64,000 nucleotides of DNA from positions 5,895 to 69,894 of the forward strand of contig JAYKHY010000064.1 of the NCBI GenBank assembly GCA_035285025.1. The letters are read 5' to 3'. Shown here in pieces: positions 3,140 through 60,801 of this stretch. The stretch's first letter is position 1. Every line of letters begins with the position of its first letter. The notes beneath the pieces were generated by a model, which saw only the letters and a list, made by a program, of their open reading frames with translations, made no database searches and was not told the DNA's origin. A program made the position numbers and the translations under genes. Origin of the DNA: Vampirovibrionales bacterium. Its GTDB lineage: Bacteria > Cyanobacteriota > Vampirovibrionia > Vampirovibrionales > JAJTHC01.

Positions 3140-4255
3140 ATGTTTCGTCGTTTATCGCTTGCAATTTTAAGCCTGGGCCTCTGTTTAACCCTGCTGCCTA
3201 CTTCGTCGCAGGCCGAGGCCGCGCAGTTACGCCTTAAAGATATTGCGCGCGTCAAAGACGTCCGCGATAACCAGGTGGTGGGCTACGGCCTGGTGGTCGG
3301 GCTAAATAAATCCGGCGACCGCAGTCGCTCGACCCAAAGCGCGCAACTCAACCTGATTACCAACATGGGCGGGCGACTCAGTAGCATTAACGATATTCGC
3401 GGGACCAACACGGCGGCTGTTATAGTGACGGCAACGATTCCGCCGTTTGCAAAACCCGGCGACCGGTTAGATGTCACGGTGTCTTCTTTGGCCGATGCGA
3501 ACAGCCTTGAGGGCGGCGTGTTGATTGCGACGCAATTGCAGGCCCCTAACGGCGAAATCGTTGCCGTGGCGCAAGGCCCGGTGTCAACCGGCGGAACTTC
3601 AGTAAGCGCAAACGGCTCCGAAAAACGCACGGCGATTACCACCACGGGCCGCGTGCCCAACGGTGCGATTATTGAGCGCGAGATTATGACCAGCATTGGC
3701 GATGCCAGCGGTCTGGATGTGATTATTGATCGGACGGATTTTACCCTTGCCAACCGCGTTGCAGAAGCCATTAGCAAGCTAACGCCCGCGGCTGCAATGG
3801 ATGGCAGCACCATTCGGGTGCAACTGACCAATGGATGGTCTGAGAACCGGGTGGCGTTTTTATCCAAAATGGAAAATCTGCTTGTTAATACCACGCAGGA
3901 AGTCGCCAAAGTGGTGGTGAACGAGCGCACTGGCACGGTGGTGATTGGCCAGCACGTGCGGCTTTTGCCGGCAGCCGTCGCGCACGGTGGCATTACGGTT
4001 ACGATTTCGACTGAAAACAGTGTCTCGCAAGCAAATCCGTTGGCGCCAGAGGGTGCCGAGACTGTGGGCGTGGGCAATAGCACTATTGATATTCAGGAAG
4101 AAAAAGGACATTTGGTGGCGTTAAAATCCAACTCGACCCTGCAAGACCTGGTGACCGCCCTGAATGCGCTAGAAATTACGCCCAGCGACCTAATTGCGGT
4201 GTTGCAGGCGCTTAAATCCGCCGGGAGCCTAGAGGCCGCGCTCGAGATTATTTAG
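3140..4255 (+). CDS. flgI: flagellar P-ring protein FlgI
   Basis: N-terminal signal peptide, then LRLKDIARVKDVRDNQVVGYGLVVGLNKSGD, which is typical of FlgI. Length is 371 aa. Confidence 0.95.
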   Translation: MFRRLSLAILSLGLCLTLLPTSSQAEAAQLRLKDIARVKDVRDNQVVGYGLVVGLNKSGDRSRSTQSAQLNLITNMGGRLSSINDIRGTNTAAVIVTATIPPFAKPGDRLDVTVSSLADANSLEGGVLIATQLQAPNGEIVAVAQGPVSTGGTSVSANGSEKRTAITTTGRVPNGAIIEREIMTSIGDASGLDVIIDRTDFTLANRVAEAISKLTPAAAMDGSTIRVQLTNGWSENRVAFLSKMENLLVNTTQEVAKVVVNERTGTVVIGQHVRLLPAAVAHGGITVTISTENSVSQANPLAPEGAETVGVGNSTIDIQEEKGHLVALKSNSTLQDLVTALNALEITPSDLIAVLQALKSAGSLEAALEII

Positions 4256-14226: not shown

Positions 14227-15141
14227 ATGAGTACGCCAAGTCCGACTGCTACGAGATATTTCGCGCCGGGTGTTTTACCTGCTGGACTTTCGCAAGCGCC
14301 GCCCGTGTTGCCGCCGCATTTGATGGCACCGCACTTTTACGCGCAATACGGTGCTTTAAAACAGCCCGCAACGCCTGTAATCGCCAATGCGCTGCCGGTG
14401 CCGGGTTTGGGGCCTGTGGCTGGGCCCTCGCCTGCGGCTGCGGCGATGCCGATGGAAGCCCTGGTGCGCGATTCGGTTGAGTTGGCGGGTAAAAAACTGG
14501 TTCAGCAAGCCGAACATCTGAACCCTACACAGATGCAATCTGCTATTAATAAGGCTGTAATGAGCACGGGTAAGGTTGCGGCGGGCCTAACTAAAGTGGG
14601 GATTCAGGCGATTCCTGAGTTTCATAATCCGCTCGAAAAAGGCTGGCTGCGCCTGGTGGGGTTTTTTAATGAATTTGCAGAATCCGCCAAGGGCGTGATT
14701 CCACCGCAGTTGTATCGTCTGTTTTATGGCGTCGAGATGGCGTATACCGCGCTGGATTGCCTGAATACGCGTAAGCACGCCCTGACGCATCAGGATAATT
14801 TGTTGGAGGCGCAGCAAAAGCGCAAAGTTGCCGTGGGCGAAATGCTTAACACGCTGGGCAAGCAAGGCCTGGCTACGTTTTTGATTCCTTATGTTGTGAT
14901 TGAGAACTTTAAAAAAGTCGTTGAGCACGCCCTGGAAAATCCAAAACTGATGCAAAAGTTACCGGCAAAACTTGCTCAAGCTGTTACCAGTAAGGCGGGT
15001 AAAAAATTCATTCCGGTGCTGGCGGGCTTGTCCACGATTCCGTTGTTAACCCGCTACGTCGATCCGTTGGTGTTTGGCGGCTGCGATAAATTCTTGCGGC
15101 CGCTCGTCGGTGCCGCGCCTTTAGAGCAAGAGCCTCGCTAA
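14227..15141 (+). CDS. hypothetical protein with a proline-rich N-terminus
   Basis: 304-aa ORF. I recognise no motif. Its 3' end is part of the tandem repeat at 15109-15303. Confidence 0.55.
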   Translation: MSTPSPTATRYFAPGVLPAGLSQAPPVLPPHLMAPHFYAQYGALKQPATPVIANALPVPGLGPVAGPSPAAAAMPMEALVRDSVELAGKKLVQQAEHLNPTQMQSAINKAVMSTGKVAAGLTKVGIQAIPEFHNPLEKGWLRLVGFFNEFAESAKGVIPPQLYRLFYGVEMAYTALDCLNTRKHALTHQDNLLEAQQKRKVAVGEMLNTLGKQGLATFLIPYVVIENFKKVVEHALENPKLMQKLPAKLAQAVTSKAGKKFIPVLAGLSTIPLLTRYVDPLVFGGCDKFLRPLVGAAPLEQEPR

Positions 15142-36870: not shown

Positions 36871-37950
36871 TTGAGCGGCGAGAAAACAGAACAGCCTACA
36901 GGTAAAAAACTAAGCCAGGCCCGAAGCCAGGGCCAGGTTGCGCGCAGCCAGGATTTAAACCGCGCGGTGGTGCTGGTGGCGGCGGCTCTGGTGTTTTGGT
37001 TTGGCGGCAAGTATTTTGCCGCAAGCATGCTCGGGTTAATCTCGGGGGATTTGCACCGCCTGGTCGATAGCGGGTTTGACCGCCCGTTGACGCGCTCTGG
37101 GTTTACGGCGTTGCTGCAGCACACCATCGAGGCTTCGATATTAATGCTGCTGCCCTTTGGGTTAACCATTGCGGCACTGGGCACGGCAATCAACTTTGCC
37201 CAGGTTGGGTTTCATCTTAGTTTTAAACCGTTGCAACCCAACCTGAGCAAAATCAACCCGATTCCGGGCACCAAACGCTTTTTTTCGATGACGACGACCG
37301 TCGAAACGCTGAAATCCCTGCTAAAAATGACGCTGATTGGCAGCATGGTGGCTTCGATTATCTGGGGTAATCATAAAACGCTACTTAGTACCGCCAGCAT
37401 GGATATTCAATCGGCAGTCATGGCCGTTTCCGGCATTTTATCGCAACTGGTGGGCTGGGCGATTTTCTGGTTCTTGATTTTGGGCGGCGGCGACTGGTTT
37501 TACCAGCGTTACGCGTTTTTAAAGCAGCTGCGCATGAGCAAACAGGATATTAAAGACGAGCACAAGGATGCTGATGGCGACCCGAACATTAAAGCGCGGA
37601 TCCGTGCAGCCGGCCGGCAGATTGTTAGCAAGCGCCAACTGGCTGCAGTACCCATGGCCGATGTGGTGATTACCAACCCGACGCACTTTGCGATTGCGCT
37701 GCAATACGACCCGGATATTGCGCCCGCACCGCGCGTGATTGCCAAAGGCGTGGATCATTTTGCGCAAAAGATTAAAGAAGTTGCCAAGGAGAACGGCGTG
37801 CCGATGGTGGAGAACCGTCCGCTGGCGCGCACCCTGTACGATCAGGTAGATTTGGACCGTATGATCACCCCAGAGCTGTTTGTGGCTGTCGCCGAGGTGT
37901 TGGCTTTGGTCTACGCACAGCAAGGTGGCCGGCGTAAGTCTAAATCTTAA
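36871..37950 (+). CDS. flhB: flagellar biosynthesis protein FlhB
   Basis: SGEKTEQPTGKKLSQARSQGQVARSQDL and the autocleavage site NPTHFAIAL. The start codon is TTG. Confidence 0.95.
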   Translation: MSGEKTEQPTGKKLSQARSQGQVARSQDLNRAVVLVAAALVFWFGGKYFAASMLGLISGDLHRLVDSGFDRPLTRSGFTALLQHTIEASILMLLPFGLTIAALGTAINFAQVGFHLSFKPLQPNLSKINPIPGTKRFFSMTTTVETLKSLLKMTLIGSMVASIIWGNHKTLLSTASMDIQSAVMAVSGILSQLVGWAIFWFLILGGGDWFYQRYAFLKQLRMSKQDIKDEHKDADGDPNIKARIRAAGRQIVSKRQLAAVPMADVVITNPTHFAIALQYDPDIAPAPRVIAKGVDHFAQKIKEVAKENGVPMVENRPLARTLYDQVDLDRMITPELFVAVAEVLALVYAQQGGRRKSKS

Positions 37951-39773: not shown

Positions 39774-40583
39774 CTATTGAATCAGGCGTAAGGCTTCTTC
39801 CAGCAAGGATTTGTTGGTGCTGATAATTTTATTGGTTACATCCAGTTGTAATTTAGCTTGTCGCACCATGCCCACCTGTTCATCCAGGTCAATATTGCTT
39901 TGCTCCAGCAAGCCACTGCGGATTTCGCCGGTGCCTTGTGCCGCCTCGCCCGATTGCGCGGTGGCAACGTAATGCTGGTCTTCCACTTCGGATAATCCCG
40001 ATGGGTTCGTAAAGTTGGCCAGCGCAATTTTATACAACGGCTCGGTCGTGTTGCCTTTGTCCGCTATCCCAAGCACCGTACCGTCCGAACGGATTTTATA
40101 TTCATCGTACTTGCCTAAAAACTTGCCGTTACTGGGGTCAACCCACATGGTAATTTCGCTGGTGGGCACCTGATTTGCGGGCAAGGGCGCACCGTTACTT
40201 TGTGTTGGGCTCACCACTTGGCCTTTATCATCAAGCAAATAGCCCTGCACTTTATCGCCCTTGTGATTCACTAATGTGCCATCGTTGTTAAACGTAAAAT
40301 CGCCCAGTCGCGTGTAGCGCAAGCTGCCATCATCTTTACGCACAATAAAATGGCCACGCCCTTCTATAAACAGGCTGGTTGGGCCACGGCCCGGAATCGA
40401 CTTGCCCTGATCGTCCTTGCGCGCAATGTCATCGCCGTGGACGCCGCTTAGAAAATCCGAAAACGTCATTTGGGTCTGGCGATACCCGGGCGTGTACATA
40501 TTGCCCAGGTTTTGGGTTAAGGCCCCAAACCAGTCATACACCGTTTTTTGTGTGTTGAGTGAGGTTATAAACGGATCGTACAC
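39774..40583 (-). CDS. flagellar basal-body rod protein (FlgF/FlgG family)
   Basis: N-terminal LTQNLGNMYTPGYRQ and C-terminal LLEQSNIDLDEQVGMVRQAKLQLDVTNKIISTNKSLLEEAL. I chose the GTG at 40583 because GGAGG lies 7 nt upstream; the ORF extends to the TTG at 40589. Confidence 0.85.
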   Translation of the reverse strand: MYDPFITSLNTQKTVYDWFGALTQNLGNMYTPGYRQTQMTFSDFLSGVHGDDIARKDDQGKSIPGRGPTSLFIEGRGHFIVRKDDGSLRYTRLGDFTFNNDGTLVNHKGDKVQGYLLDDKGQVVSPTQSNGAPLPANQVPTSEITMWVDPSNGKFLGKYDEYKIRSDGTVLGIADKGNTTEPLYKIALANFTNPSGLSEVEDQHYVATAQSGEAAQGTGEIRSGLLEQSNIDLDEQVGMVRQAKLQLDVTNKIISTNKSLLEEALRLIQ

Positions 40584-40916
40584 GTGCAAGCCTCCGTAGT
40601 GCTACGCTCTAGGAATCGTCTAAATCATCTTTAAACGTAGGCTTTTGGCCTAAAAGTCACCCTTTACCCGCTAGGGCATTTAAAACTGCTTTTACAGGCC
40701 GTTTTCCTGCGTTTACGGCTAAGCCAACGGCGTTTTGAATGCGATTAAAGTCAAATTGACCTCTTTATGAAGAGGGCTGTTTGCTTAAAGCGTACTCAGG
40801 TTTGCGCGCATGGCAACATGGGCGTTAGCCCAGCCAACTTATTTAAAAGCGTCAATCTTCCACTCCTAAAGCCGATTTACACTCAGCAATGCGTTAAACC
40901 CCTCTCAAGCTTTGTA

Positions 40917-44233: not shown

Positions 44234-45814
44234 CTATTCCTTGAGTGTTTCGGCAAGTGTGTCGGCGATGGCCTGGACGTCTGCCAGATTTAAACCGGTT
44301 GCCTTCGCCAGGCGTGAGCCGTAATCAGCATCTGCTTTGTAACAGAACGCCGTAATACGGTTTTTAACGGCTGTGTTGGTGACCTGTTTTAAATCGCCCG
44401 AAAAATTCGAGACCAGGTTGGTTTTTTCTTGCGCCGTAAACGAGCGGTATAGTTCGCCCGCTTGTTTAAAGTTGAGCGTTTTGGTTATGCCGCGCTGTTG
44501 CGTTGTGCCGTTCAGCGGGGTTTCGGTTAGTTTAAAGTTGGCGTCATCGGTAAACCCGTCTTCGCTAATGCTGGGTTGGTAGTTAATGTCGCTGGTTTGT
44601 TTTTTCAGGAACCCCTCGCCCGCTTGATTATGGTTATTTACCTTGGCAAGCGGCATGTTAATGGGGAGTTGCTGGCCATTTACGCCAAGCCGGTAGCGCT
44701 GGGTATCGGTGTATGAGAACAAACGTCCCTGTAGTAATCGATCTTCCGAAGGTTCAATCCCCGGAATCAGGTTTGCGGGCGAGGGGGCAAACCGTTCAGT
44801 TTCGTTAAAATAGTTTTGGGGCATTTTGTTGAGCGTTAATTTACCCACGCGCACTTCGGGGACTAAATCGGTCGGCCAGATTTTCGTGGCATCCAACGGG
44901 TTAAACTCAAATGCGTTTAACTTGTCTGCCTCTAAAACCTGAACCATTAAGTCCCAGCTGGGGTAATTCCCGGCCGCAATCGCTTTACGAAGATCGTTGG
45001 TGTGCAGGTTAAAATCCTGGCCGCCCGCCTCGGTTGCTTGCTGCGCTGTAAAGGTTTTTAGGCCCTGGTTGCTTTTCCAGTGGAATTTGGCGTAATGAAC
45101 CTTGCCTTCGGCGTTGATCAGTTTGTAGGCATGCACGCCAAATCCGTCCATGGTTCTCAGGCTGGCAGGGGTGCCTTGGTCTGAGTATAAAAACGTCAGC
45201 ATGTGCGTGCTTTCGGGTTGATGCGAGAAAAAGTCAAACCAGCGGTTGGGGTCTTGCACATTGCTCACGGGCGAGGGTTTAAGCGAATGCACCATGTCGG
45301 CAAACTTAATGGCATCGCGGATAAAAAACACGGGCAGGTTATTGCCGACTAAATCCCAGTTGCCCGATTCTGTATAAAAGCGCGTGGCAAATCCGCGCGG
45401 ATCGCGTAGCGTCTCTGGCGAGCCGCTGGCGTTAATTACCGTCGAAAAGCGAACAAACACCGGGGTTTTAAGGCCAGGCTTTTGCAGGGGCGCCAACCGG
45501 GTCAGCGCTGATAAATCGGTATAACTCTCAAATTCGCCGTGGGCGCCTACACCGCGCGCGTGTACCACGCGCTCCGGGATGCGTTCGCGATCAAACGCGG
45601 CCAGTTTTTCGATCAAATGAACATCTTGCAGTAGCGTCGGGCCGGTTGGGCCTGCGGTTTGGCTGTTCTGGTTGTCGCCAACGGGCGCGCCATTGTTACG
45701 CGTTAGGGTGGGCGCTTCGGCAAGGGCGATTAAACTTAACGCGTTGATTACACTTGAAACCCCAAGGGTAAGCGCTAGGGCAACCGGAGTCACGCGATTG
45801 GTGCGGCGATTCAT
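44234..45814 (-). CDS. monofunctional heme catalase with an N-terminal signal peptide
   Basis: FDRERIPERVVHARGVGAHGEF, RFSTV, and the signal-like N-terminus RVTPVALALTLGVSSVINALSLIALAEA. Confidence 0.95.
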   Translation of the reverse strand: MNRRTNRVTPVALALTLGVSSVINALSLIALAEAPTLTRNNGAPVGDNQNSQTAGPTGPTLLQDVHLIEKLAAFDRERIPERVVHARGVGAHGEFESYTDLSALTRLAPLQKPGLKTPVFVRFSTVINASGSPETLRDPRGFATRFYTESGNWDLVGNNLPVFFIRDAIKFADMVHSLKPSPVSNVQDPNRWFDFFSHQPESTHMLTFLYSDQGTPASLRTMDGFGVHAYKLINAEGKVHYAKFHWKSNQGLKTFTAQQATEAGGQDFNLHTNDLRKAIAAGNYPSWDLMVQVLEADKLNAFEFNPLDATKIWPTDLVPEVRVGKLTLNKMPQNYFNETERFAPSPANLIPGIEPSEDRLLQGRLFSYTDTQRYRLGVNGQQLPINMPLAKVNNHNQAGEGFLKKQTSDINYQPSISEDGFTDDANFKLTETPLNGTTQQRGITKTLNFKQAGELYRSFTAQEKTNLVSNFSGDLKQVTNTAVKNRITAFCYKADADYGSRLAKATGLNLADVQAIADTLAETLKE

Positions 45815-49472: not shown

Positions 49473-49904
49473 AGCTTAAATGCGCAAATAATACGTTGCC
49501 AACGATGCCAGCATTAATCCTACACCAAAACGCATCTTGCTAGACGCAAGCTTTTGGCGCTTGTCGCTTAGGTGCAAGGTTTTAGCCAGTATCGCAACAT
49601 GAGTTAAGGCGAGTATGCGTTTTATTTAAGCTGCTTTTTGTAAGCGACATGTTGGATTATCGTTTTATCTGGCGAAACGCTTGATTTGCGGCATTGACCT
49701 GACTAGCCTACGGGTTTTTGGGCAATGGTTGCGCGCGGCTTGTAAAATTCATGACGTAATTTAAGCGCGACATGCATCAACCGTTTGCATCCATCAATGC
49801 CTTGGATATACTGATGGTAATCTTCTTGAAGCAAATTTTTTAATCGACTTTTCTTGCATTTTTTTGAGCCAAACCGGTTTTTTAATTTTGGCCGAAAGGA
49901 ATAT

Positions 49905-51302
49905 ATGAACGGGGTTCTAGCCGAAATTTTTAGCGATAAGCCATACAGCGCGAGTCGTAATTTTTTAGTGACCGCCATTTTCTGGCTTTTGTTCGGGGTG
50001 CTGGCAGGGCTGCTTGCAGGCGCCCTGATGGTTTGGCCCGATTTGACCAAGGGCGTAGCGCAACTGAATTTTGGTAAGGTTCGGCCGTTGCACATTAACG
50101 GTATTCTGGTTGGCTGGCTCTCGATGGCGTATGTGGGGTGCATGTTTTACCTCTCGACGCTGCTCTCGAAGCGTGACCGTTTATGGAGCGAGATGCTGGG
50201 TAACGTGACCTGTGTGGTCTGGAACCTGCTGATGGTGTTTGGCTTGCTTGCCATTGCCAACGGCTACACCGAGGCGCGCGAATATGCCGAGATGAACGGT
50301 ATTTTTGACTGGATGGTCATGGCAGGCCTGTTGCTGACAGGCGTTAACGTATACGCCACGATTTTGACCGGTCCCGAGAAAAAATGGTACGTCAGCACCT
50401 GGTACTTTTTAGGGGCGCTGTTCTGGTTCCCGATTGTTTACCTGATTGGTAACCGCGCGTTCGTCTCGTTTAACGGGTTAAACGATGCGATTGCAGGATG
50501 GTTTTATGGCCACAACATTTTGGGGATGTGGTTTACCGTGGGCGGCGTTGGGATTTTGTATTACCTGTTGCCCCGGTATTCCGGGAATCCGCTGTACAGT
50601 CACACGCTGTCGATGATTGGCTTCTGGACCATTGGGATGTTCTACGCGCCTACGGGTACGCACCATTTGTTGCAAGCCCCGGTGCCTGAGTGGCTGAAAG
50701 CCATTGCGGTTATCTCGAGCGTGTTTTTGCTGGTGCCCGTGTTTACCGTGTTGATTAACTTTTTTATGACGCTCAAGGGTAAATGGGGATTAGCCGCAGA
50801 ACATGTGCCGATGCGCTTTGCCATTGCGGCCGGATTTGGCTACTTGCTCACGTGTATTCAAGGGCCGTTCCAGGCTACCCGGAGTATTAACTGGTACATT
50901 CACTTTAGCCATTGGGTGGTGGGTCACGCGCACCTGGCGTTGCTGGCCACGTTCTCGATGATCTCGTTCTCGGCGATTTACTTTATTATTCCGCGCATTG
51001 TGCAGCGCAAAGTCTATAGTCGCGGTCTGGCCATCTGGCACTTTTGGCTCACGTTGATTGGCTGGATTGTGATGGTGGTGGATTTAACCATCGCGGGTTT
51101 GATTCAGGCGGCGGGCTGGCACTTTAACATTGTTGTTGACCAGTGGGCCATTGAGATGGAACCGTACATGTTTGTTCGCTTCCTGTCGGGTGTGATGATC
51201 GTCGCGGGTCAAGTGCTATTTATGATCAATATTTACAAAACCGTGTTTGATAAAAACGGCGAAGCGTTGCCCAAGTCGCCCAGTGGTCAGTTGTACGTGT
51301 AA
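49905..51302 (+). CDS. ccoN: cbb3-type cytochrome c oxidase subunit I
   Basis: 12-TM heme-copper oxidase with PTGTHHLLQ and HFSHWVVGHAHLALL, typical of C-family subunit I. I chose the start at the ATG at 49905 because AAGGA lies upstream. Confidence 0.9.
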   Translation: MNGVLAEIFSDKPYSASRNFLVTAIFWLLFGVLAGLLAGALMVWPDLTKGVAQLNFGKVRPLHINGILVGWLSMAYVGCMFYLSTLLSKRDRLWSEMLGNVTCVVWNLLMVFGLLAIANGYTEAREYAEMNGIFDWMVMAGLLLTGVNVYATILTGPEKKWYVSTWYFLGALFWFPIVYLIGNRAFVSFNGLNDAIAGWFYGHNILGMWFTVGGVGILYYLLPRYSGNPLYSHTLSMIGFWTIGMFYAPTGTHHLLQAPVPEWLKAIAVISSVFLLVPVFTVLINFFMTLKGKWGLAAEHVPMRFAIAAGFGYLLTCIQGPFQATRSINWYIHFSHWVVGHAHLALLATFSMISFSAIYFIIPRIVQRKVYSRGLAIWHFWLTLIGWIVMVVDLTIAGLIQAAGWHFNIVVDQWAIEMEPYMFVRFLSGVMIVAGQVLFMINIYKTVFDKNGEALPKSPSGQLYV

Positions 51303-51313
51303 AGGTTAATGCC

Positions 51314-51625
51314 ATGCAAGTGATTTCGGCAAGTAAAACCCCTATTGGTATTAAACACGCGAAGTTTGGACAAAAAAAATGCACGCCCAAAGAAAATGCC
51401 GAGATTGCCTCATTCTTTAGACTTATGGCTACAGGGCAACTTCATATTGCCAGGCAAATCAATAATGAACAAAAGAAAAATCCTCATGTGGATTTGCAAA
51501 GAAATTTAATTCATCTTTTTGAGCTTGCATCGGAAAATTTTCGAGCAGCAGCTCAAATCCAAAAAGAAGGTATCGAGGCGGTTTTAGATAAAAACGCCGC
51601 AAAAAAAAGCAAAAATAAAATTTAG
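51314..51625 (+). CDS. hypothetical Lys-rich soluble protein, markedly A/T-rich gene
   Basis: 103-aa ORF sustained in a clearly low-GC segment. It is located between ccoN and ccoO. No TM segment and no motif. Confidence 0.5.
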   Translation: MQVISASKTPIGIKHAKFGQKKCTPKENAEIASFFRLMATGQLHIARQINNEQKKNPHVDLQRNLIHLFELASENFRAAAQIQKEGIEAVLDKNAAKKSKNKI

Positions 51626-51660: not shown

Positions 51661-52635
51661 ATGAACGATAAACTGACCTATATTATTGGTGGCTGTTTCG
51701 TCGCCCTGATCTTTCTGACGATCATCTTCATCACCACCATTCTGCCCTCGGCCACCTTCCAGCCCAAATCCTCCGAAGGCGTCCAGCCTTACACCGCGCA
51801 AGAATGGCGGGGCCGTAACATCTACCGCCAAGAGGGCTGTTTTTACTGCCACTCGCAGTTTAACCGCTACCAGGATTGGGAAGGCGGCGAGCTAAGCCAG
51901 GCGGGCGATTACACGTTTGATACGCCGCATACGCTAGGCACCGAGCGCACCGGCCCGGACTTGTCTAACATTGGTGGCAAATACGCCGATGCCTGGCACG
52001 TGGCCCACCATCGCGACCCGCGCAAGGTCAAGCCGGGCTCAATTATGCCTTCGTTTAATCACCTGAGTGATGAAGACATGACGGATTTGGTGGCTTACTT
52101 GCAAACGCTGGGTCGTAACCGTAAATTGCCACGCTGGATTGCGCCGCCGCAAGAAATCCGCGACCATTACGCGCTGATTGCCGAAAAAGTTGATGTCAAC
52201 TCGAGCGCGGCGGCTAACGCCGGCCGGGGTATTTTTATGCAGAACTGCGCACAATGCCACGGCGTAAACGCGCAAGGCAACGGCCCGGTAAGCGCGACGA
52301 TGCAAAGCAAGCCTGCTAACCTGACGCGTAACTACTTTAAAGCTTACAGCGATGACATGCTTTACTACCGCATTGCGCACGGCGTGCCCGGTAGCCGGAT
52401 GCCGCGCTGGGCGAAATCGCTGAGTGACGAGAGCTTGCTGTACTTAACGGCGTACGTAAAAACGCTGCCCAAGGCGGCTGATGCGCCGAACCCCGAGGTT
52501 ACCGAGCTGAATGCGCTCGATAAGCCTGAGGCCCTGAGTGCCAACTTTAACCAGATTCAATCGCTGAATCCGAATCATCACGATGAGGATGCGCGGTACT
52601 TATACGGTTATGGTCGCCCTAGCGGTGGACATTAA
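51661..52635 (+). CDS. ccoO: cbb3 oxidase subunit II (CcoO) fused to an additional C-terminal monoheme cytochrome c domain
   Basis: N-terminal TM anchor, CFYCHSQ, GTERTGPDLSNIGGKY and GSIMPSF (CcoO). A second CxxCH follows (NCAQCHGVNAQGNG...RMPRW). Confidence 0.85.
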   Translation: MNDKLTYIIGGCFVALIFLTIIFITTILPSATFQPKSSEGVQPYTAQEWRGRNIYRQEGCFYCHSQFNRYQDWEGGELSQAGDYTFDTPHTLGTERTGPDLSNIGGKYADAWHVAHHRDPRKVKPGSIMPSFNHLSDEDMTDLVAYLQTLGRNRKLPRWIAPPQEIRDHYALIAEKVDVNSSAAANAGRGIFMQNCAQCHGVNAQGNGPVSATMQSKPANLTRNYFKAYSDDMLYYRIAHGVPGSRMPRWAKSLSDESLLYLTAYVKTLPKAADAPNPEVTELNALDKPEALSANFNQIQSLNPNHHDEDARYLYGYGRPSGGH

Positions 52636-52671: not shown

Positions 52672-52842
52672 ATGTGCCCTTCATGTTTATCTGGTGGCCT
52701 TGGCGTTGGGTATTACGCGGCGTTTGCGATTTGCGGCCTGTTTTTCGTCGTCGCGGCGGGTGCGCTGTTTTGGGCGGCTAAAGCCGGTAAGCTGGACAAT
52801 ATGGAGCAATCCAAGTTTTCTATTTTAGAAGATGCCGAATAA
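52672..52842 (+). CDS. ccoS: CcoS/FixS-like small membrane protein (below the ORF-track cutoff)
   Basis: 56 aa, translated by hand as MCPSCLSGGLGVGYYAAFAICGLFFVVAAGALFWAAKAGKLDNMEQSKFSILEDAE. One TM segment followed by FW..K.G..D..E....IL.D, as in CcoS. Confidence 0.6.
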   Translation: MCPSCLSGGLGVGYYAAFAICGLFFVVAAGALFWAAKAGKLDNMEQSKFSILEDAE

Positions 52843-52894: not shown

Positions 52895-53089
52895 ATGGCA
52901 GGAATCAACATTATGACCGATCACCCGCAACCCGCTACCGAAATGCCCTCGCCGACGCCCGTCGAGGCTTCTCACGATTACGCCGAATTTGAAATTGGTC
53001 ACCACCCGGTGCCCTGGTTTTTATGGCTGTTTTTTGGCGGTATTATTGCTTGGGCCTCCATCTCCTGGATTAAGTTTTTTGGCTACTAA
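52895..53089 (+). CDS. stand-alone FixP/CcoP N-terminal-like membrane anchor
   Basis: HDYAEFEIGHHPVPWFLWLFFGGIIAWASISW resembles the FixP_N motif (DGI.E.DN.LP.WW..F). At 64 aa it has no heme motif. Confidence 0.55.
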   Translation: MAGINIMTDHPQPATEMPSPTPVEASHDYAEFEIGHHPVPWFLWLFFGGIIAWASISWIKFFGY

Positions 53090-53119
53090 TTTTTAATTTT
53101 ACTTTAGGATCTTTTGTTC

Positions 53120-54043
53120 ATGACTCGCCTTTTTTTGAATGCCCTGGCGCTGGTCTTCACTCTTTCTTCGGTGATTGCCCTGAGTGGTTGCACTGTTGAA
53201 AATGAGACTGATACTCGTTCGTTGTCTGCGCGCGAAGTGGTTCCTGTTAAAGATGAACGCCTTGTGCGCGAAGATTTTGCGTTCCCATCGGCACCGCCCT
53301 CGTTTAGCGCGGGTAAACAGGTATTTGCCCAAAATTGTGCCAGTTGCCATGCGGGTAATTTCTGGCAGCAGCGTTCGGTGCAGACCAAATTGGCTTACAG
53401 CACGCCCATCGATACCTATTTGATGCTGACGACGGGCGAGGCGCCAGAGGTGCAGAACCCTAGTGCGCAGCGCGTCCAGAAAGCTTTACCTGCCAAACAC
53501 CCTGCGTTTTCGGATAAATTGACGCGTGATGAGCGCTGGGCCGTCTTGTTTTATGTTCGTCATTTAGCAGGTTCGAGCGATTTTGAGTACACGAACCGTG
53601 CGGGCAAACCCGTGAGCGTGGCCAGTGTTTACGGGGCAAACTGTGCTGTGTGCCACGGTAAAGAAGGCTATGGTAACGGTCCGCTACATACGGGCCACCC
53701 CAGCAGCCACGAACTTGCTGCGGGTAAGGTACACAGCGGCTTGTTCATTCCGCCGCCAGCGAACTTCCACGATTACCGACGCCTATACAACCGTACGGAC
53801 GCGCAATTGGTGAAGTATATCCGCGAAGGTATTTATCCTTCGGGGATGCCCGCTTGGCTGGGCGCAGTGGACAAAGATAATGATTTTGTTTTTGACGACA
53901 AGATGATTTTAAAGCTGGTGCAGCATGTACGCACATTTGGGTTTAAAAACGACTTACCTGAAGATCAGGTGCCACCTGCTGGTTTAACTCAAGTCCCTGC
54001 GTTGTCTGAGCCGGGCGTTCAGGGTAATAACATTAAGCGTTAA
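53120..54043 (+). CDS. diheme c-type cytochrome, probable lipoprotein
   Basis: Lipobox VIALSGC and two CxxCH motifs (NCASCHAG and NCAVCHGKEGYGNG). I chose the start at the ATG at 53120 because AGGA lies upstream. Confidence 0.8.
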   Translation: MTRLFLNALALVFTLSSVIALSGCTVENETDTRSLSAREVVPVKDERLVREDFAFPSAPPSFSAGKQVFAQNCASCHAGNFWQQRSVQTKLAYSTPIDTYLMLTTGEAPEVQNPSAQRVQKALPAKHPAFSDKLTRDERWAVLFYVRHLAGSSDFEYTNRAGKPVSVASVYGANCAVCHGKEGYGNGPLHTGHPSSHELAAGKVHSGLFIPPPANFHDYRRLYNRTDAQLVKYIREGIYPSGMPAWLGAVDKDNDFVFDDKMILKLVQHVRTFGFKNDLPEDQVPPAGLTQVPALSEPGVQGNNIKR

Positions 54044-54132: not shown

Positions 54133-54789
54133 GTGGATCGCCGATCATTTTTAAAACTGTTGCTTAGCCTCCCCATGCTGGGCGTGGCGGGCGCGTTTAT
54201 GTCGCCATCGTTGCGCTATTTGCGGCCAACGCTGGGTCCATTAACGGCCTCTAAAATCGATACCAAGAACAAGCCCTTTACTGAATGGGTGGGCGAAGGT
54301 GGCCTGATTGCCAAGCCCGATAAACCGGAGAAGGAGCGTGACGTGCGCTTTAAGGTTTCGGATTTTGCCAAGCCCTGGGATGTCCAGACGTTTACGTTTG
54401 GCCAGCGCAGTACCGAGTACACTGCAAATGGGTTCCAGGCGACGCGCATTCCTGCGTTTGCGATTCGGTTACCCGAAGATAAAGATGGCAAGCCTGATTT
54501 TTACGTCATCAGTCGGATTTGTCCGCACATGGGCTGCGTGTTTAATTACCTGCAAGACCCTGTAGAAGCGGCCAACTATAACTATCCGCAGGCCAAGGAC
54601 CCATTATTTGCGTGTCCTTGCCACTTGAGCGTGTTTGACCCGCTGCAAACGCAGGATGACGGTAAAGGCAAGCTGATTCCGGGTAAAGTGGTGAGTGGCC
54701 CTGCGCCGCGCCCGCCCAGGCAGTTTACCTGGGCCATAGAGGGTGATGATTTAGTGATTCAGGAAGCTGAATCTGGAGGGATTTCTTAA
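54133..54789 (+). CDS. Rieske [2Fe-2S] subunit with a twin-arginine signal
   Basis: MDRRSFLK (Tat motif), CPHMGC and CPCHLSVFD. The start codon is GTG. Confidence 0.9.
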   Translation: MDRRSFLKLLLSLPMLGVAGAFMSPSLRYLRPTLGPLTASKIDTKNKPFTEWVGEGGLIAKPDKPEKERDVRFKVSDFAKPWDVQTFTFGQRSTEYTANGFQATRIPAFAIRLPEDKDGKPDFYVISRICPHMGCVFNYLQDPVEAANYNYPQAKDPLFACPCHLSVFDPLQTQDDGKGKLIPGKVVSGPAPRPPRQFTWAIEGDDLVIQEAESGGIS

Positions 54790-54790
54790 C

Positions 54791-56302
54791 ATGACTGCTC
54801 CGCAACACATACAGCAGGAGAAGCGCTGCCCCATGTCTACGATGGGCGCTTGCCTGATGAACGGCTTGATGACGGGTTACAAATGGGTTACCGAGCGCAT
54901 CGCCAAAATTGATTTGTTTGATGAGACCAAATCGGCAGAGCGTAAAACCTCGCCGTGGTACATGCTGGGTGCTATTTATTATTTGGCTTGGGTTTTGGTG
55001 ATGACCAGCGGCTTGATTCTGGTCGCGTTTTATATTCCCACAACCTCGCAGGCCTTTGATTCGATTAACGCCATCATGGCCAATGTCCCGTTCGGAAGCA
55101 TTATTCGTGGTTTCCATAAATACGGCGCAGATTGTATGATTATTGCGGCCACATTGCGGATTTATCGCATGTGGTTTGCGGGTGAGTATAAAAACAAAGG
55201 CGAGCTTACGTTTATTCTGGCACTGGTGTTGCTGCTGGTGGCCATGTATTCGGGCTTGACGGGGTACCTTTTAATCTGGAACCAGCGCGCGTTCTGGGCG
55301 ACCAAGGTGTTTGCCACGTTCCCGACCTACCTGGATATTACGCCAGGCCGATGGCATTGGCCTTGGGAAACCGTTTCGGGTCGCGATTTAACCTGGTTTA
55401 TCCCGAATGCGATTGGTGCCAGCACCAAGATTATTGGTAACTTAACGCACCAAGGGGTCACGACGTCGCAAATTCTGATGGGCGGTGCCTCGATTGGCCA
55501 AGCCACGATGACGCGGTTTTTCTCGTTGCACTTTGGGATTTCGTTGATTTTACTCGTGGTTAGCGAGCTGTATTTTTACCAGAACCGGCTTAAGCGCATT
55601 AACTTAACGCGTTGGTCGGTGCTGACTGTGGTGCTGATGCTGCTGATTACCAGCATTATTTTTCCGACGGAGTCCGGGTCTCGTGCGAACCCTGAAGTTA
55701 CGCCATTGCCGATTCTGTCGGACTGGTATTTCCTAGCGCTGTATCAAATGCTGAAGTATATGGATCCTTACTGGGCCACCATCTGGACGGTGGGAATCCC
55801 TGTGATTACGGTTGGTTTAACATTTGTGGATTTTGGCAAAGAGACCAATATCTGGAAGCGCCCCATGTTTTTCTGCCTGGCGATTATGGGCTTCATTCAG
55901 TTCGTGATTTTCTCGCTGCTCATTATTGCCAACCAGGCTAATATTGATCGCGATCCGCCTTACTGGTACGGCAGCATGGTGTTCTTTATCACGATTGGTC
56001 AGTTCTGGCACTTTGCCCTGTACCGCCAGCTGTTACCGATGATGGTCTGGGTGGGCTTTAACTTAGTGACCAGTGTGTTTTATTTGCTGCACTGGCATGT
56101 AATTTCTGCCGACTGGCTGATGTTGTGGTTCCAGGCGCAAGGCAACGTAGCGTGGAACGCAAGCAACTTGTACTGGAACCTGCTTTGGGTGATTTACAGT
56201 GTTGTCCAAGCGGCTGTGGCGGGCGCGCTGTTTTTGCCCAAGCTACCGCAGTACTTGACTCAACCCAAGCTTATCGTCACCGAGTTGACGGATGGACGGT
56301 AA
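54791..56302 (+). CDS. cytochrome b (fused b6 plus subunit-IV-like, with extra C-terminal helices), atypical heme ligation
   Basis: RGFHKYGADCM, GELTFILALV.......GLTGYLLIWNQRAFWATKV, TRFFSLH and SDWYFLALYQ (a PEWY-like motif). Only one His is present in each of helices B and D. Confidence 0.9.
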   Translation: MTAPQHIQQEKRCPMSTMGACLMNGLMTGYKWVTERIAKIDLFDETKSAERKTSPWYMLGAIYYLAWVLVMTSGLILVAFYIPTTSQAFDSINAIMANVPFGSIIRGFHKYGADCMIIAATLRIYRMWFAGEYKNKGELTFILALVLLLVAMYSGLTGYLLIWNQRAFWATKVFATFPTYLDITPGRWHWPWETVSGRDLTWFIPNAIGASTKIIGNLTHQGVTTSQILMGGASIGQATMTRFFSLHFGISLILLVVSELYFYQNRLKRINLTRWSVLTVVLMLLITSIIFPTESGSRANPEVTPLPILSDWYFLALYQMLKYMDPYWATIWTVGIPVITVGLTFVDFGKETNIWKRPMFFCLAIMGFIQFVIFSLLIIANQANIDRDPPYWYGSMVFFITIGQFWHFALYRQLLPMMVWVGFNLVTSVFYLLHWHVISADWLMLWFQAQGNVAWNASNLYWNLLWVIYSVVQAAVAGALFLPKLPQYLTQPKLIVTELTDGR

Positions 56303-56669
56303 CATCACGAAGCCTTCAACGCCTCAAGGGGCTGCCGGCGCCCATGCTACGCATTGCGAACCTGGCAGCCCACCGCAAATGCCAATTGAGACCGAGCTAT
56401 TGACCGGCCCGATTCGGGGGCTCAACACGATTGCCTGGTGGGCCGTGTTTTTACTCTGCGCGGTAGGACTTTCGTGGGTGTTTGAGACGTTTAAGCAGTT
56501 TACGCTGGTGCCTAATCTAACCAATGGGTTGTTGCTGGCAGGGGCGTTTTTCATTTTACTTGGCGCGTTTGTATTGCTGTTGTACGATAGTTACGCAAAA
56601 GAAAAGCAAAAAGATAAAATCACGCGTCCGTTTGCGTTGTTTGAAGCCTGGTATCATCGCAAACGTTGA
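56292..56669 (+). CDS. small membrane protein, start overlapping the cytochrome b stop
   Basis: Its ATG overlaps the cytochrome b stop by 11 nt, which suggests translational coupling. Two predicted TM segments. No motif. Confidence 0.5.
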   Translation: MDGNITKPSTPQGAAGAHATHCEPGSPPQMPIETELLTGPIRGLNTIAWWAVFLLCAVGLSWVFETFKQFTLVPNLTNGLLLAGAFFILLGAFVLLLYDSYAKEKQKDKITRPFALFEAWYHRKR

Positions 56670-56926
56670 GCCCGCCCGCACTCACACAAATCCTGAAAGG
56701 CGACATGTGCGTTTAATCTTATCGCCCCGTTTTGGAGCAAAGTTGCCCGAAAATAAAACGCTAATCCGAATACTGGTGAGGATTCAAGACAAAAAAGAGT
56801 CCCTGTTAGAACATATGAGCTTGGTAAGCGGATTACTGAGCAACAAGATGAGTTTAGAGTGTTGATGGAAGGCCCAGATCGTCAAGGCGGTCTAGAATTT
56901 TAAAATTATTGCTTGGAGTTCAGGAT

Positions 56927-57184
56927 ATGTCTTATAAAGCAAAACAGCAGCCCGGTTTTTTGGCGATTTTGATTACTTTTTTGGCCATTGGCGTTACGTT
57001 GGCGGTGTTACCAATGGTGCTCAAGGGCGATGCGCTGGTTGATATGCTTGATCAACCGGCGGTCATGCTCGAAGGTCTCAAGCTGTTTTACGCGGGCGTT
57101 GGTGGCGCGCTATTAGCCTTGGGCGTTGCGTATGTGATTGTTGATAAGCAAGACCCGGTAAAGACCCAGCCCGGCGAAGAATAA
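56927..57184 (+). CDS. small membrane protein
   Basis: GGAG lies 9 nt upstream of the ATG at 56927. Two predicted TM segments. It is followed by a strong terminator. Confidence 0.5.
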   Translation: MSYKAKQQPGFLAILITFLAIGVTLAVLPMVLKGDALVDMLDQPAVMLEGLKLFYAGVGGALLALGVAYVIVDKQDPVKTQPGEE

Positions 57185-59805: not shown

Positions 59806-60285
59806 GGGTATGACGGTATCATAAAAACGGGGCCGCTCGCAGCGTGGGGCATGCGGGGCGTCTCTGCAGATGAAGTACCCTTAAGCAAAAAAACAAAAAG
59901 CCTGAAGCCGAGGGTCAGTCAAGGCAGTAAATCGACGACATCAGAATTTTTTTTTCGCTTTCGCGCTTAAGTGTGCTATTTAAAGCAAGCTTAATGACGG
60001 GCAAAACTTGATTCTTTTGGTTTAAAAGTCGTCTGTCTGGTGGACGAATAGGACGGTCGCACTTGCTATGATAGGGTGTGTAGTCGTACAAATATAGCAA
60101 ATTTTAAGCTCGAATCAGAGCGTTCCTGCACGAATGTGTAGGCGTCTGTTTATATCGCGTGTGGAAAAATATAGACTTTAAAAGTATATCAACCACAGTG
60201 TTTTAGACTTAAGTTGATTTACTTTAAGGGACGTTAATTTTAAGGATTCAATGCGCCTTAGGCGCTGATTACGGAGTTGAGCGTG

Positions 60286-60801
60286 ATGGCCGAGACACTC
60301 AAATTACAGACCAGCCGGTTTGGCGAATTATCCGTGGACCCGACCACGCTGATTCGGATGGCGCTGCCGATGCTGGGCTTTGAGTCGCAAACCCGCTTTG
60401 TTTTAATTCAGCACAAGCCCGATTCGCCGTTTTTGTGGCTACAAAGCGCCGATGACCCGGATTTGGCGTTTATCCTGACTCAGCCGCAATGGTTTAGCAT
60501 GGCGTACTCGATTACGATTCCGGATGCAGCAGTGGATGCTCTGGAGATTACCTGCGCCGAAGATGTTGAGATTTACACCCTGGTGACGATTCCGGATGAC
60601 ACCCCAGAGCGGATGACAACCAATCTTTTGGGGCCAGTGGTTATTAACAAGCACAACCGTAAGGCGGCGCAAATCGTTTTAAGTGATTCGGCGTTTGGCA
60701 CCAAAACCCCCCTGTTGCAGCCCGCTAAAATCGGCAGCGAACCGGCGACCGGCACGTTGCAGTGGCTCAGCCAGTCTGCGGAACCTGCTGCAGCGGTTTA
60801 A
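60286..60801 (+). CDS. fliW: flagellar assembly factor FliW (with a C-terminal extension)
   Basis: LPMLGFESQTRFVLIQHKPDSPFLWLQSADDPDLAFILTQP. It lies immediately upstream of csrA. GGAG lies 9 nt upstream of the ATG at 60286. Confidence 0.9.
   Translation: MAETLKLQTSRFGELSVDPTTLIRMALPMLGFESQTRFVLIQHKPDSPFLWLQSADDPDLAFILTQPQWFSMAYSITIPDAAVDALEITCAEDVEIYTLVTIPDDTPERMTTNLLGPVVINKHNRKAAQIVLSDSAFGTKTPLLQPAKIGSEPATGTLQWLSQSAEPAAAV

Follow-up and report, generated by a model that had tools for sequence, protein, structure and literature searches.

Loss of both high-potential haem ligands in the cytochrome b of a cbb3-linked Rieske/cytochrome b operon of Vampirovibrionales and its relatives

A stretch of 64,000 nucleotides from a Vampirovibrionales bacterium (assembly GCA_035285025.1, contig JAYKHY010000064.1, positions 5,895 to 69,894 of the forward strand; hereafter the window) was found to encode a fused cytochrome b, here called b-I, that keeps the two histidine ligands of the low-potential haem on the positive (P) side of the membrane (bL/bp) and has neither of the two for the high-potential haem on the negative (N) side (bH/bn). 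The loss of the bH ligands is a clade-wide trait of a widespread family in Vampirovibrionia, Acidobacteriota and Armatimonadota, and it sets apart a variant of the Rieske/cytochrome b complex that is widespread and had not been characterised before. The bH haem itself is very probably absent from b-I. A first-pass annotation of this DNA had pointed out the missing ligands in the window; the distribution of the trait over a whole clade, the fixed cbb3-oxidase operon in which the gene resides and the place of the window as one of two loci lacking adjacent partner genes were additional results of the present analysis.

The membership of b-I in the cytochrome b superfamily was evident from its N-terminal four-helix haem domain and its C-terminal subunit IV-like domain, with Pfam matches to PF00033 Cytochrome_B (1.8e-25, 90.4 bits, cut-off 27.2), PF13631 Cytochrom_B_N_2 (57.1 bits, above the curated cut-off) and PF00032 Cytochrom_B_C (4e-7, 30.6 bits, cut-off 20.7). 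A phmmer search of all PDB chains returned cytochrome b6 as the top match (1e-27) and also matched cytochrome b, and the closest PDB folds to an AlphaFold2 model of the protein (predicted local distance difference test score, pLDDT, 78.7) were the cytochromes b of bc1 complexes. Helices A-H are followed by two additional C-terminal helices. Since b6 and subunit IV are joined in one polypeptide of 489-503 amino acids (aa), b-I is not of the b6f type; it is labelled 'cytochrome b6' by some sources, and a gene of the b-I type was annotated petB in PMC6349859. Residues are numbered here on the open reading frame (ORF) of 503 residues, from which 14 is subtracted to obtain the 489-aa numbering of the public gene calls, which begin at M15 (54833; protein P0001). 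This start is the likely one. The Rieske stop codon (54787-89) ends one base before the ATG at 54791, and the upstream ATG may thus be the real start of the cytochrome b.

The loss of the N-side ligands was read from the alignment with b6 and directly from the codons (Table 1). The phmmer alignment paired IRGFH(109)KYGADCMIIAATLR(123)IYR of b-I with IRSIH(86)RWSASMMVLMMILH(100)VFR of b6, and TRFFSLH(247) with TRYYSAH(187), leaving b6 H202 opposite Y261/F262. In the b6f complex, His86 and His187 ligate haem bp, and His100 and His202 ligate haem bn (PMC7908018). In the canonical layout, two histidines stand 14 residues apart in helix B and two 14-15 residues apart in helix D; b-I has only H109 and H247 of these four, with R123 and Y261 in the bH columns. 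Direct inspection of helices B and D revealed no further histidine, so that the ligand conclusion does not depend on the placement of gaps. Altogether, the first-pass annotation was correct in reading H109 and H247 as kept and both bH positions as non-histidine, in finding no other histidine in the two helices and in assigning the retained pair to bL/bp and the missing pair to bH/bn. Its reading of SDWY in place of the PEWY motif of the quinol-oxidising (Qo) site was also borne out, and this motif retains the D, W and Y of PDWY, with Ser replacing the first Pro. A site for haem cn was considered and rejected, because the equivalent of b6 Cys35 (CxGG), to which haem cn is covalently bound, is Met in b-I (WYMLGA).

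The orthologues of b-I share the loss. A protein search returned 911 relatives, and residues were counted by column in the best 120 of these (100% to 49% identity) together with the window; where source names were given among these best 120, they were Vampirovibrionales, Melainabacteria or Cyanobacteria metagenome-assembled genomes (MAGs). The helix-B site was R in 100 and K in 21 of these sequences, and the helix-D site was Y in 120 and W in one. With one genome scanned per species, b-I relatives were revealed in 283 genomes, the 80 best of which were taken as the locus set. Each of these 80 showed the pattern H-(R/K)-H-E-(Y or R) together with SDWY, the R at the helix-D site belonging to Acidobacteria-labelled loci, and they included Vampirovibrio chlorellavorus NCIMB 11383, Obscuribacterales, Caenarcaniphilales and Acidobacteria (Holophagaceae, Solibacteraceae). 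The SDWY motif was present in 81/81 locus proteins and was also invariant in alignment A1.

Below 1e-30, an exhaustive HMMER search of 1.84 billion representatives yielded no more than 26 clusters; the next matches were ordinary cytochromes b, at ~30-38% identity. The helix-B histidine was present in 111/111 canonical neighbour clusters versus 0/28 b-I family clusters, and the helix-D histidine in 105/111 of the canonical ones. A search seeded by a divergent b-I member brought in Armatimonadota-labelled sequences. Throughout the resulting ~250 aligned b-I sequences the helix-B site was R or K and never His, while the helix-D site was Y, L, F, R or W, or His in ~18 sequences. By group, the helix-D residue was Y in Vampirovibrionia, R in Acidobacteria, and L or F in clusters that include Armatimonadota-labelled proteins. 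The b-I gene is under purifying selection, because more than 100 columns were invariant among 60 sequences of 46-86% identity. Across the whole family H109 and H247 were the sole invariant histidines. A substitute histidine pair elsewhere in the protein, for example in the additional C-terminal helices, was rejected as no other histidine is conserved, and a hidden or fused c-type haem as an electron exit was rejected with CxxCH in 0/81 proteins. The pattern H-R-H-E-H, with the helix-B Arg and a helix-D His, was observed in P0128, P0129, P0130, P0133, P0135 and ~13 more (e.g., L081:8001-9764); these members look like evolutionary intermediates, or could hold a single-His haem. Outlier clusters of a PDWY type were also encountered.

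Changes around the lost ligands were examined by comparing the haem pockets of the b-I family with those of the 111 canonical clusters. The helix-C Gly on the N-side (b6 Gly121) was G in 111/111 canonical clusters, and in b-I clusters it was A in 19, S in three and G in two, with A, S or G at this site across the ~250 sequences. Additionally, b6 Gln47 is replaced by Val or Thr, b6 Pro192 by Ser, and b6 Arg114 and Trp118 are no longer conserved. Gln47, Arg114 and Trp118 are on the N-side, where a canonical cytochrome b has its Qi/Qn site for quinone reduction beside haem bH. Glu259 was invariant in the core SDWY family, at a position where the canonical residue is A, G, V or L. The P-side Gly residues (b6 Gly51 and Gly135) and the bL ligands were kept, as were the helix-A N-side Gly (b6 G37), the cd-loop LIWNQRAFWATK and the ef-loop PLPILSDWYFLA, the last of which was invariant. 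To judge from these columns, the N-side haem pocket has been lost selectively, and the P-side haem and the Qo site have been preserved. The Arg/Glu pair may take over the role of the haem in linking helices B and D. The former ligand positions are variable (R/K in helix B; Y/R/L/F/W/H in helix D), which argues against a conserved non-His ligation.

The b-I gene is located in a cbb3-type oxidase operon, in which a COX1 gene is followed by FixO fused to a Cytochrome_CBB3 domain and by a FixS-like small ORF at the matching position. Relatives have a PF03597 FixS gene of 55-56 aa at this place, and the window ORF is likened to it by position alone. The 103-aa ORF between ccoN and ccoO matched nothing in Pfam and, by tblastn, nothing in the related loci; it may be no gene, or species-specific. 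Upstream of b-I are the dihaem cytochrome c, which is the probable equivalent of cytochrome c1/f, and immediately adjacent the Rieske gene with intact cluster boxes, in keeping with the Rieske/b complex proposed in the first-pass annotation. These boxes, CPHMGC and CPCHLSVFD, are separated in the window by an unusually long spacer of 25 aa; both were kept in 83/84 sequences including the window, with spacers of 24-30 aa. In bc1 and b6f complexes this spacer is roughly 13-14 residues, and the box CPCHGSxY carries Tyr where the window Rieske protein has Phe. The start of the ORF at 56292 overlaps the b-I stop codon (56300-02), which, together with the single base between the Rieske stop and ATG 54791, suggests translational coupling along the operon. 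Beyond 57184, the window continues on the other strand with leucyl aminopeptidase (pepA) and SurE.

Table 1. Coordinates of the operon genes and of the diagnostic b-I residues in the window, with examples of the b-II/FlpD gene pair from related loci.
Feature	Position	Strand	Remarks
CcoN-like catalytic subunit, C-family (cbb3-type) haem-copper oxidase	49854..51302	+	Pfam COX1 1.1e-78; first gene of the module
ORF, 103 aa, between ccoN and ccoO	51314-51625
CcoO (FixO) fused to second c-type domain	51661..52635	+	FixO 2.4e-37, Cytochrom_C/Cytochrome_CBB3; two CxxCH
56-aa membrane ORF, FixS/CcoS-like by position	52672..52842	+
64-aa single-helix membrane protein	52895..53089	+	same place in most Vampirovibrionales and Obscuribacterales loci (tblastn); no Pfam match
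Dihaem c-type cytochrome, lipoprotein-like signal (…LSGC)	53114..54043	+	Cytochrom_C 1.4e-13, two stretches, two CxxCH
Rieske [2Fe-2S] protein, twin-arginine signal (RRSFLK)	54133..54789	+	Pfam Rieske 1.1e-4, 22.5 bits vs cut-off 20.3
b-I, fused cytochrome b	54791..56302	+	503 codons, intact reading frame
H109, CAT	55115..55117	+	helix-B ligand of P-side haem bL/bp, kept; b6 His86; invariant in homologues
R123, CGG	55157..55159	+	at helix-B ligand site of N-side haem bH/bn; b6 His100
A144, GCA	55220..55222	+	helix-C N-side site; b6 Gly121, canonical Gly
H247, CAC	55529..55531	+	helix-D ligand of P-side haem, kept; b6 His187; invariant
E259, GAG	55565..55567	+	buried family-specific Glu, two residues ahead of lost helix-D ligand
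Y261-F262-Y263, TAT-TTT-TAC	55571..55579	+	stands in for helix-D bH/bn ligand, b6 His202
SDWY, TCG-GAC-TGG-TAT	55718..55729	+	Qo-site motif, PEWY/PDWY equivalent, inside invariant stretch PLPILSDWYFLA
Small membrane protein	56292..56669	+	same position in Vampirovibrionales loci (tblastn); L081 equivalent ORF weak match, 3e-6
Second small membrane ORF	56909..57184	+	last gene of the module in the window; conserved in L001, L002
b-II/FlpD pair, locus L002	10099-11708
b-II/FlpD pair, locus L081	10476-12049
b-II/FlpD pair, locus L082	9735-11368

The gene order ccoN - ccoO-c - small ORF - dihaem c - Rieske - cytochrome b was the same in every related locus with enough flanking sequence, in all three phyla. 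The module was also consistently observed in many Acidobacteria MAGs (L033-L078, Holophagaceae/Solibacteraceae) with their own helix-D Arg variant, which looks like a genuine inter-phylum transfer. Additionally, it was detected in MAGs labelled Coleofasciculaceae/Oculatellaceae cyanobacterium (L016, L020, L064) and Gammaproteobacteria (L039), which look like cases of mis-binning or mislabelling. Relative to b6, b-I has a P-side insertion of ~30 residues after helix C (window 55290-55450, residues about 180-233) that holds a conserved W-x-W-P-W stretch and could be where the dihaem cytochrome c or another subunit docks. For aerobic Melainabacteria, the 'fused complex III/IV' operon has already been noted (PMC6349859), and genome papers score it merely as 'Complex III' (PMC4451040, PMC4040986).

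In the relatives, the operon carries a second cytochrome b. Downstream of b-I in L081 and L082/L083 (Armatimonadota) there is a protein of ~380 aa with a cytochrome b N-domain and Fer4 domains, here called b-II, followed by FlpD (PF02662, MvhD-like); b-I of L081 keeps the helix-D His. By tblastn, b-II and FlpD were identified 0.7-2.5 kb downstream of b-I in 76/83 related loci; among those whose downstream sequence was long enough, L001 was the sole exception. The window is likewise without the pair. Two b-II proteins that had been picked independently proved to be encoded in this operon too. The pattern H-13-H…H-13-H was present in 120/120 b-II sequences and two CxxCxxCxxxC motifs in 119/120, while the equivalent of PEWY was degenerate (e.g., FDLLY). 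The six hydrophobic helices of b-II place its 2x[4Fe-4S] domain in the cytoplasm. Within the same genomes, b-II always has the pair of bH ligands and b-I never does, which provides an internal control.

The fate of the pair in the lineage of the window was also followed. No homologue of b-II or FlpD, remnants included, was detected in the 64 kb of the window by tblastn up to E=10. Relatives do not share the position of the window genes pepA and surE, which leaves no clean deletion scar to define. In L001, the closest relative of the window (86% identity), the module is followed by glycosyltransferase genes and no b-II is adjacent. A Vampirovibrionales b-II (P0391, MEB3206810.1) was found on a 14-kb NCBI contig, and in a Logan assembly it occurs with FlpD in an unrelated neighbourhood. 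Its accession is 213 apart from that of the L001 cytochrome b (MEB3206597.1), which points to the same MAG; the control pair of L002 is 2 apart. The MAG of L001 thus appears to carry b-II and FlpD on another contig (L084). In the sub-lineage of the window the pair seems to have been relocated and not lost, which for the window's own genome we infer.

These observations can be brought together in a mechanism that we consider probable as a whole, including the exit of electrons through b-II. The b-I protein would be a functional cytochrome b with a single b haem, the P-side bL/bp, that keeps a Rieske-dependent quinol-oxidising Qo site and has lost bH/bn and with it the quinone-reducing (Qi) site. 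In Vampirovibrionia and some members of the Acidobacteriota and Armatimonadota, it would be the quinol-oxidising subunit and form a quinol oxidase supercomplex with the cbb3 oxidase, the dihaem cytochrome c and the Rieske protein. Of the two electrons from quinol oxidised at Qo, one would pass from the Rieske protein through the dihaem cytochrome c to cbb3 and O2, and the other to haem bL. By the established mechanism of bc1 and b6f complexes, a canonical quinone (Q) cycle is impossible within a subunit that has neither bH nor Qi. The first-pass annotation had reasoned that without a standard Q cycle there must be either a different electron path or a non-His ligation; this is reasonable, and its first branch now has a candidate in b-II and FlpD, while the second is unlikely given that the former ligand positions vary.

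The chance that the bL electron passes on to b-II, and there from bL' to bH', the 2x[4Fe-4S] domain and FlpD so as to cross the membrane, is in our estimation slightly less than even. By this route, which is the likeliest exit for the bL electron, b-II would deliver it to a cytoplasmic or N-side acceptor, and the chain of b haems would in effect be split over two polypeptides. The two proteins are complementary, b-I having the Qo site, a Rieske partner and bL alone, and b-II having bL, bH and iron-sulphur clusters with a degenerate Qo motif and no Rieske protein of its own. They are also co-inherited across phyla. Cytochrome b dimers have a bL-bL contact, and a b-I:b-II heterodimer formed through such a contact would possibly be the most economical geometry. 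Menaquinol lies near -75 mV. With this value and a low-potential Rieske protein, a rough estimate is that the bL electron, after work against the membrane potential, could reach acceptors of ~-150 mV or higher (quinone, disulfide), and that NAD+ or ferredoxin would be out of its reach.

In its most specific form, b-I and b-II would constitute a natural heterodimeric cytochrome b, in which quinol is oxidised solely at the b-I Qo site and the electron runs from bL to bL', bH', [4Fe-4S] and the MvhD-like protein. We regard this version as speculative and on the whole unlikely. If it were true, quinol electron bifurcation would here be based on a Rieske protein and driven by a cbb3 oxidase, with the second electron reducing a cytoplasmic acceptor, or quinone via the iron-sulphur clusters, without a Qi site. 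Engineered asymmetric bc1 dimers have served to demonstrate inter-monomer bL-bL transfer, and the heterodimer would be their natural counterpart.

Several points weigh against the proposed mechanism. The link between b-I and b-II rests on synteny and complementary features, the pair is not adjacent to b-I in the window and L001, and we infer the haem content of b-I from sequence. The conserved Arg three residues past the lost helix-B ligand (b6 Arg103) is still in place. Additionally, Tyr261 is almost invariant in Vampirovibrionia and some family members keep the helix-C Gly, on account of which a lineage-specific odd haem site in b-I is conceivable. Proteins similar to b-II, termed 'PDWF-FeS', occur in Magnetospirillum and Turneriella with no Rieske gene in the cluster (PMC4122944), which means that b-II can work independently of b-I.

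The strongest alternative is one that we consider unlikely. The b-I protein may be a homodimer acting as a non-bifurcating quinol:cytochrome c oxidoreductase, with b-II and FlpD forming a separate enzyme that is merely co-regulated. Haem bL, with the bL-bL pair of the dimer, would briefly store the semiquinone electron and return it to the Qo semiquinone in a built-in short-circuit or dismutation, so that both electrons end in Rieske, cytochrome c and cbb3, and energy is gained solely from scalar H+ release (1 H+/e-) and the oxidase. The operons of the window and L001, which end without b-II, would be as expected, as would the Rieske-less relatives of b-II in other bacteria (PMC4122944). A b6f complex with a disabled Qn site sustains photosynthetic electron flow via short-circuits (PMC7908018, its ref 616), and Dibrova et al. 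suspected that several bc subfamilies run no Q cycle (PMC5600118). Short-circuits in canonical enzymes are, however, 2-3 orders of magnitude slower than productive turnover (PMC7908018). The strict co-location of b-II and FlpD with b-I over three phyla, their apparent retention at another place in the MAG of L001, and the complementarity of a b-I with Qo and no bH to a b-II with bH, iron-sulphur clusters, a degenerate Qo motif and no Rieske protein also speak against two unrelated enzymes and in favour of an exit through b-II.

A second haem on the N-side held by non-His ligation is very improbable. It could be a five-coordinate Tyr261 haem with Arg123 as distal or hydrogen-bond partner or, in the minority with a helix-D His, a single-His high-spin haem, in which case transmembrane transfer inside b-I would persist. 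The nearly invariant Tyr at the helix-D site within Vampirovibrionia, the ~18 sequences with a helix-D His, the retention of the helix-A N-side Gly and of the conserved Arg past the helix-B site, and the helix-C Gly of some members would fit such a haem. However, the helix-D site elsewhere holds R, L/F or, in one sequence, W, in proteins and operons that are otherwise conserved; Ala or Ser mostly takes the place of the haem-packing Gly, and an invariant buried Glu stands beside the site. The helix-B site is mostly Arg, which is no usual haem ligand, and a Tyr-ligated haem would have a very low potential, ill-suited to accept electrons from bL. A sequencing or assembly error or a decaying pseudogene has practically no likelihood and is ruled out by the clade-wide conservation: independent assemblies carry the same substitutions by the hundred, the isolate-derived genome of Vampirovibrio chlorellavorus NCIMB 11383 among them, the frame of 503 codons is intact, and both the invariant columns and the operon context are conserved.

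The b-I family is not marginal: in aerobic Vampirovibrionia (Melainabacteria), Vampirovibrio chlorellavorus among them, the cytochrome b encoded with the cbb3-linked 'complex III/IV' genes is of this type. The family also matters for how the non-photosynthetic sister groups of Cyanobacteria conserve energy. The respiratory chain of Vampirovibrionia figures in arguments on how aerobic respiration and the cyanobacterial b6f complex originated (PMC6349859). If these organisms run no Q cycle in this complex, the proton yields assumed for them are too high and the b6f annotation is misleading. An exit of the electron via b-II would constitute a new architecture of quinol-based electron bifurcation and a natural system for studying inter-subunit bL-bL transfer and the gating of Qo short-circuits. 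In the full-text literature searched, missing haem ligands in Melainabacteria/Vampirovibrionia and the pairing of b-I with b-II were undescribed, an earlier mention being possible. Kao and Hunte dropped every sequence lacking any of the four histidines before their analysis, which may explain why the b-I clade went unnoticed there, and the SDWY motif does not occur in the text of their paper (PMC4122944).

A few other genes of the window were also noted. A catalase gene (44234-45814, minus strand; Pfam Catalase 6e-171) is located ~4 kb upstream of the oxidase operon, with two genes for ABC-type ATPases in between. An ORF of 304 aa (14227-15141, plus strand) matched Pfam MTP18, the mitochondrial 18 kDa fission protein family (2.5e-7, just over the cut-off), which is unexpected in a bacterium. 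Flagellar genes (FlgI, FlhB, FlgE/F/G-like rod/hook and FliW) are scattered over 3140-4255, 36871-37950, 39774-40589 and 60277-60801, and this fits a motile Vampirovibrio-like organism.

Compared with the canonical cytochrome b of bc1 and b6f complexes, b-I shares the N- and C-terminal Pfam domains, the best PDB sequence and fold matches, the upstream Rieske gene, the adjacent c-type cytochrome, the bL/bp ligands, the P-side Gly residues, the cd-loop and an xDWY Qo motif. It differs in the lack of both bH/bn histidines, the mostly lost helix-C Gly, the missing haem cn Cys, SDWY in place of PEWY/PDWY, the additional C-terminal helices and the P-side insertion. The obligate III-IV supercomplexes (actinobacterial bcc-aa3; bc1-cbb3 of Rhodobacter and Pseudomonas) similarly have a dihaem cytochrome c in place of c1 and couple complexes III and IV, whereas their cytochrome b has the normal two haems and runs a Q cycle. 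To our knowledge, there is no b-II/FlpD partner in these supercomplexes. The b6f mutant with a disabled Qn site is reportedly a Chlamydomonas petB bH-ligand mutant, with 'Photosynthetic growth despite a broken Q-cycle'. It resembles b-I as a Rieske/cytochrome b complex without a working N-side site that still oxidises quinol usefully via a bypass (PMC7908018). In contrast to this engineered and destabilised mutant, the loss in b-I is natural, ancient and stably selected, with a compensating Arg/Glu pair and a Gly to Ala exchange.

The four histidines of cytochrome b have been treated as invariable, and Pyrobaculum cytochrome b homologues without the fourth were interpreted by their authors as having lost the bH haem (Kao and Hunte 2014, PMC4122944). 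These homologues are likewise a natural clade systematically lacking a bH ligand, yet they are archaeal and confined to one genus, with the helix-D ligand alone reported missing and no link to a cbb3 operon or b-II described; b-I has lost both, and its bacterial hosts span at least three phyla. The short cytochromes b of cyanobacterial 'subfamily K' have Glu or Gln for the helix-2 (B) His, do not have the bn-accommodating Gly and were said to have an 'obscure' haem number (Dibrova et al. 2017, PMC5600118). They share with b-I the replaced helix-B haem ligand, and they differ as short b6-like additional copies in oxygenic cyanobacteria, whereas b-I is long and fused, has Arg or Lys at the site, lies beside a Rieske gene and is the cytochrome b of the cbb3-linked complex III genes of its host. 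Neither the Pyrobaculum nor the subfamily K proteins belong to the b-I clade, and neither group is associated with a cbb3 operon or with b-II. The descriptions of Rieske/cytochrome b complexes in Methanoperedens and Nitrospina were rejected for comparison, as they concern a different system. For b-II, the closest known counterpart is the 'PDWF-FeS' clade, which combines cytochrome b, a 4Fe-4S domain and MvhD and has no assigned function (PMC4122944). The likeness is one of architecture, with four histidines, 2x[4Fe-4S] at the C-terminus and an FlpD/MvhD-like gene next to it; the b-II described here differs in being embedded, in loci other than the window, in a Rieske/cbb3 operon beside a b-I without bH ligands.

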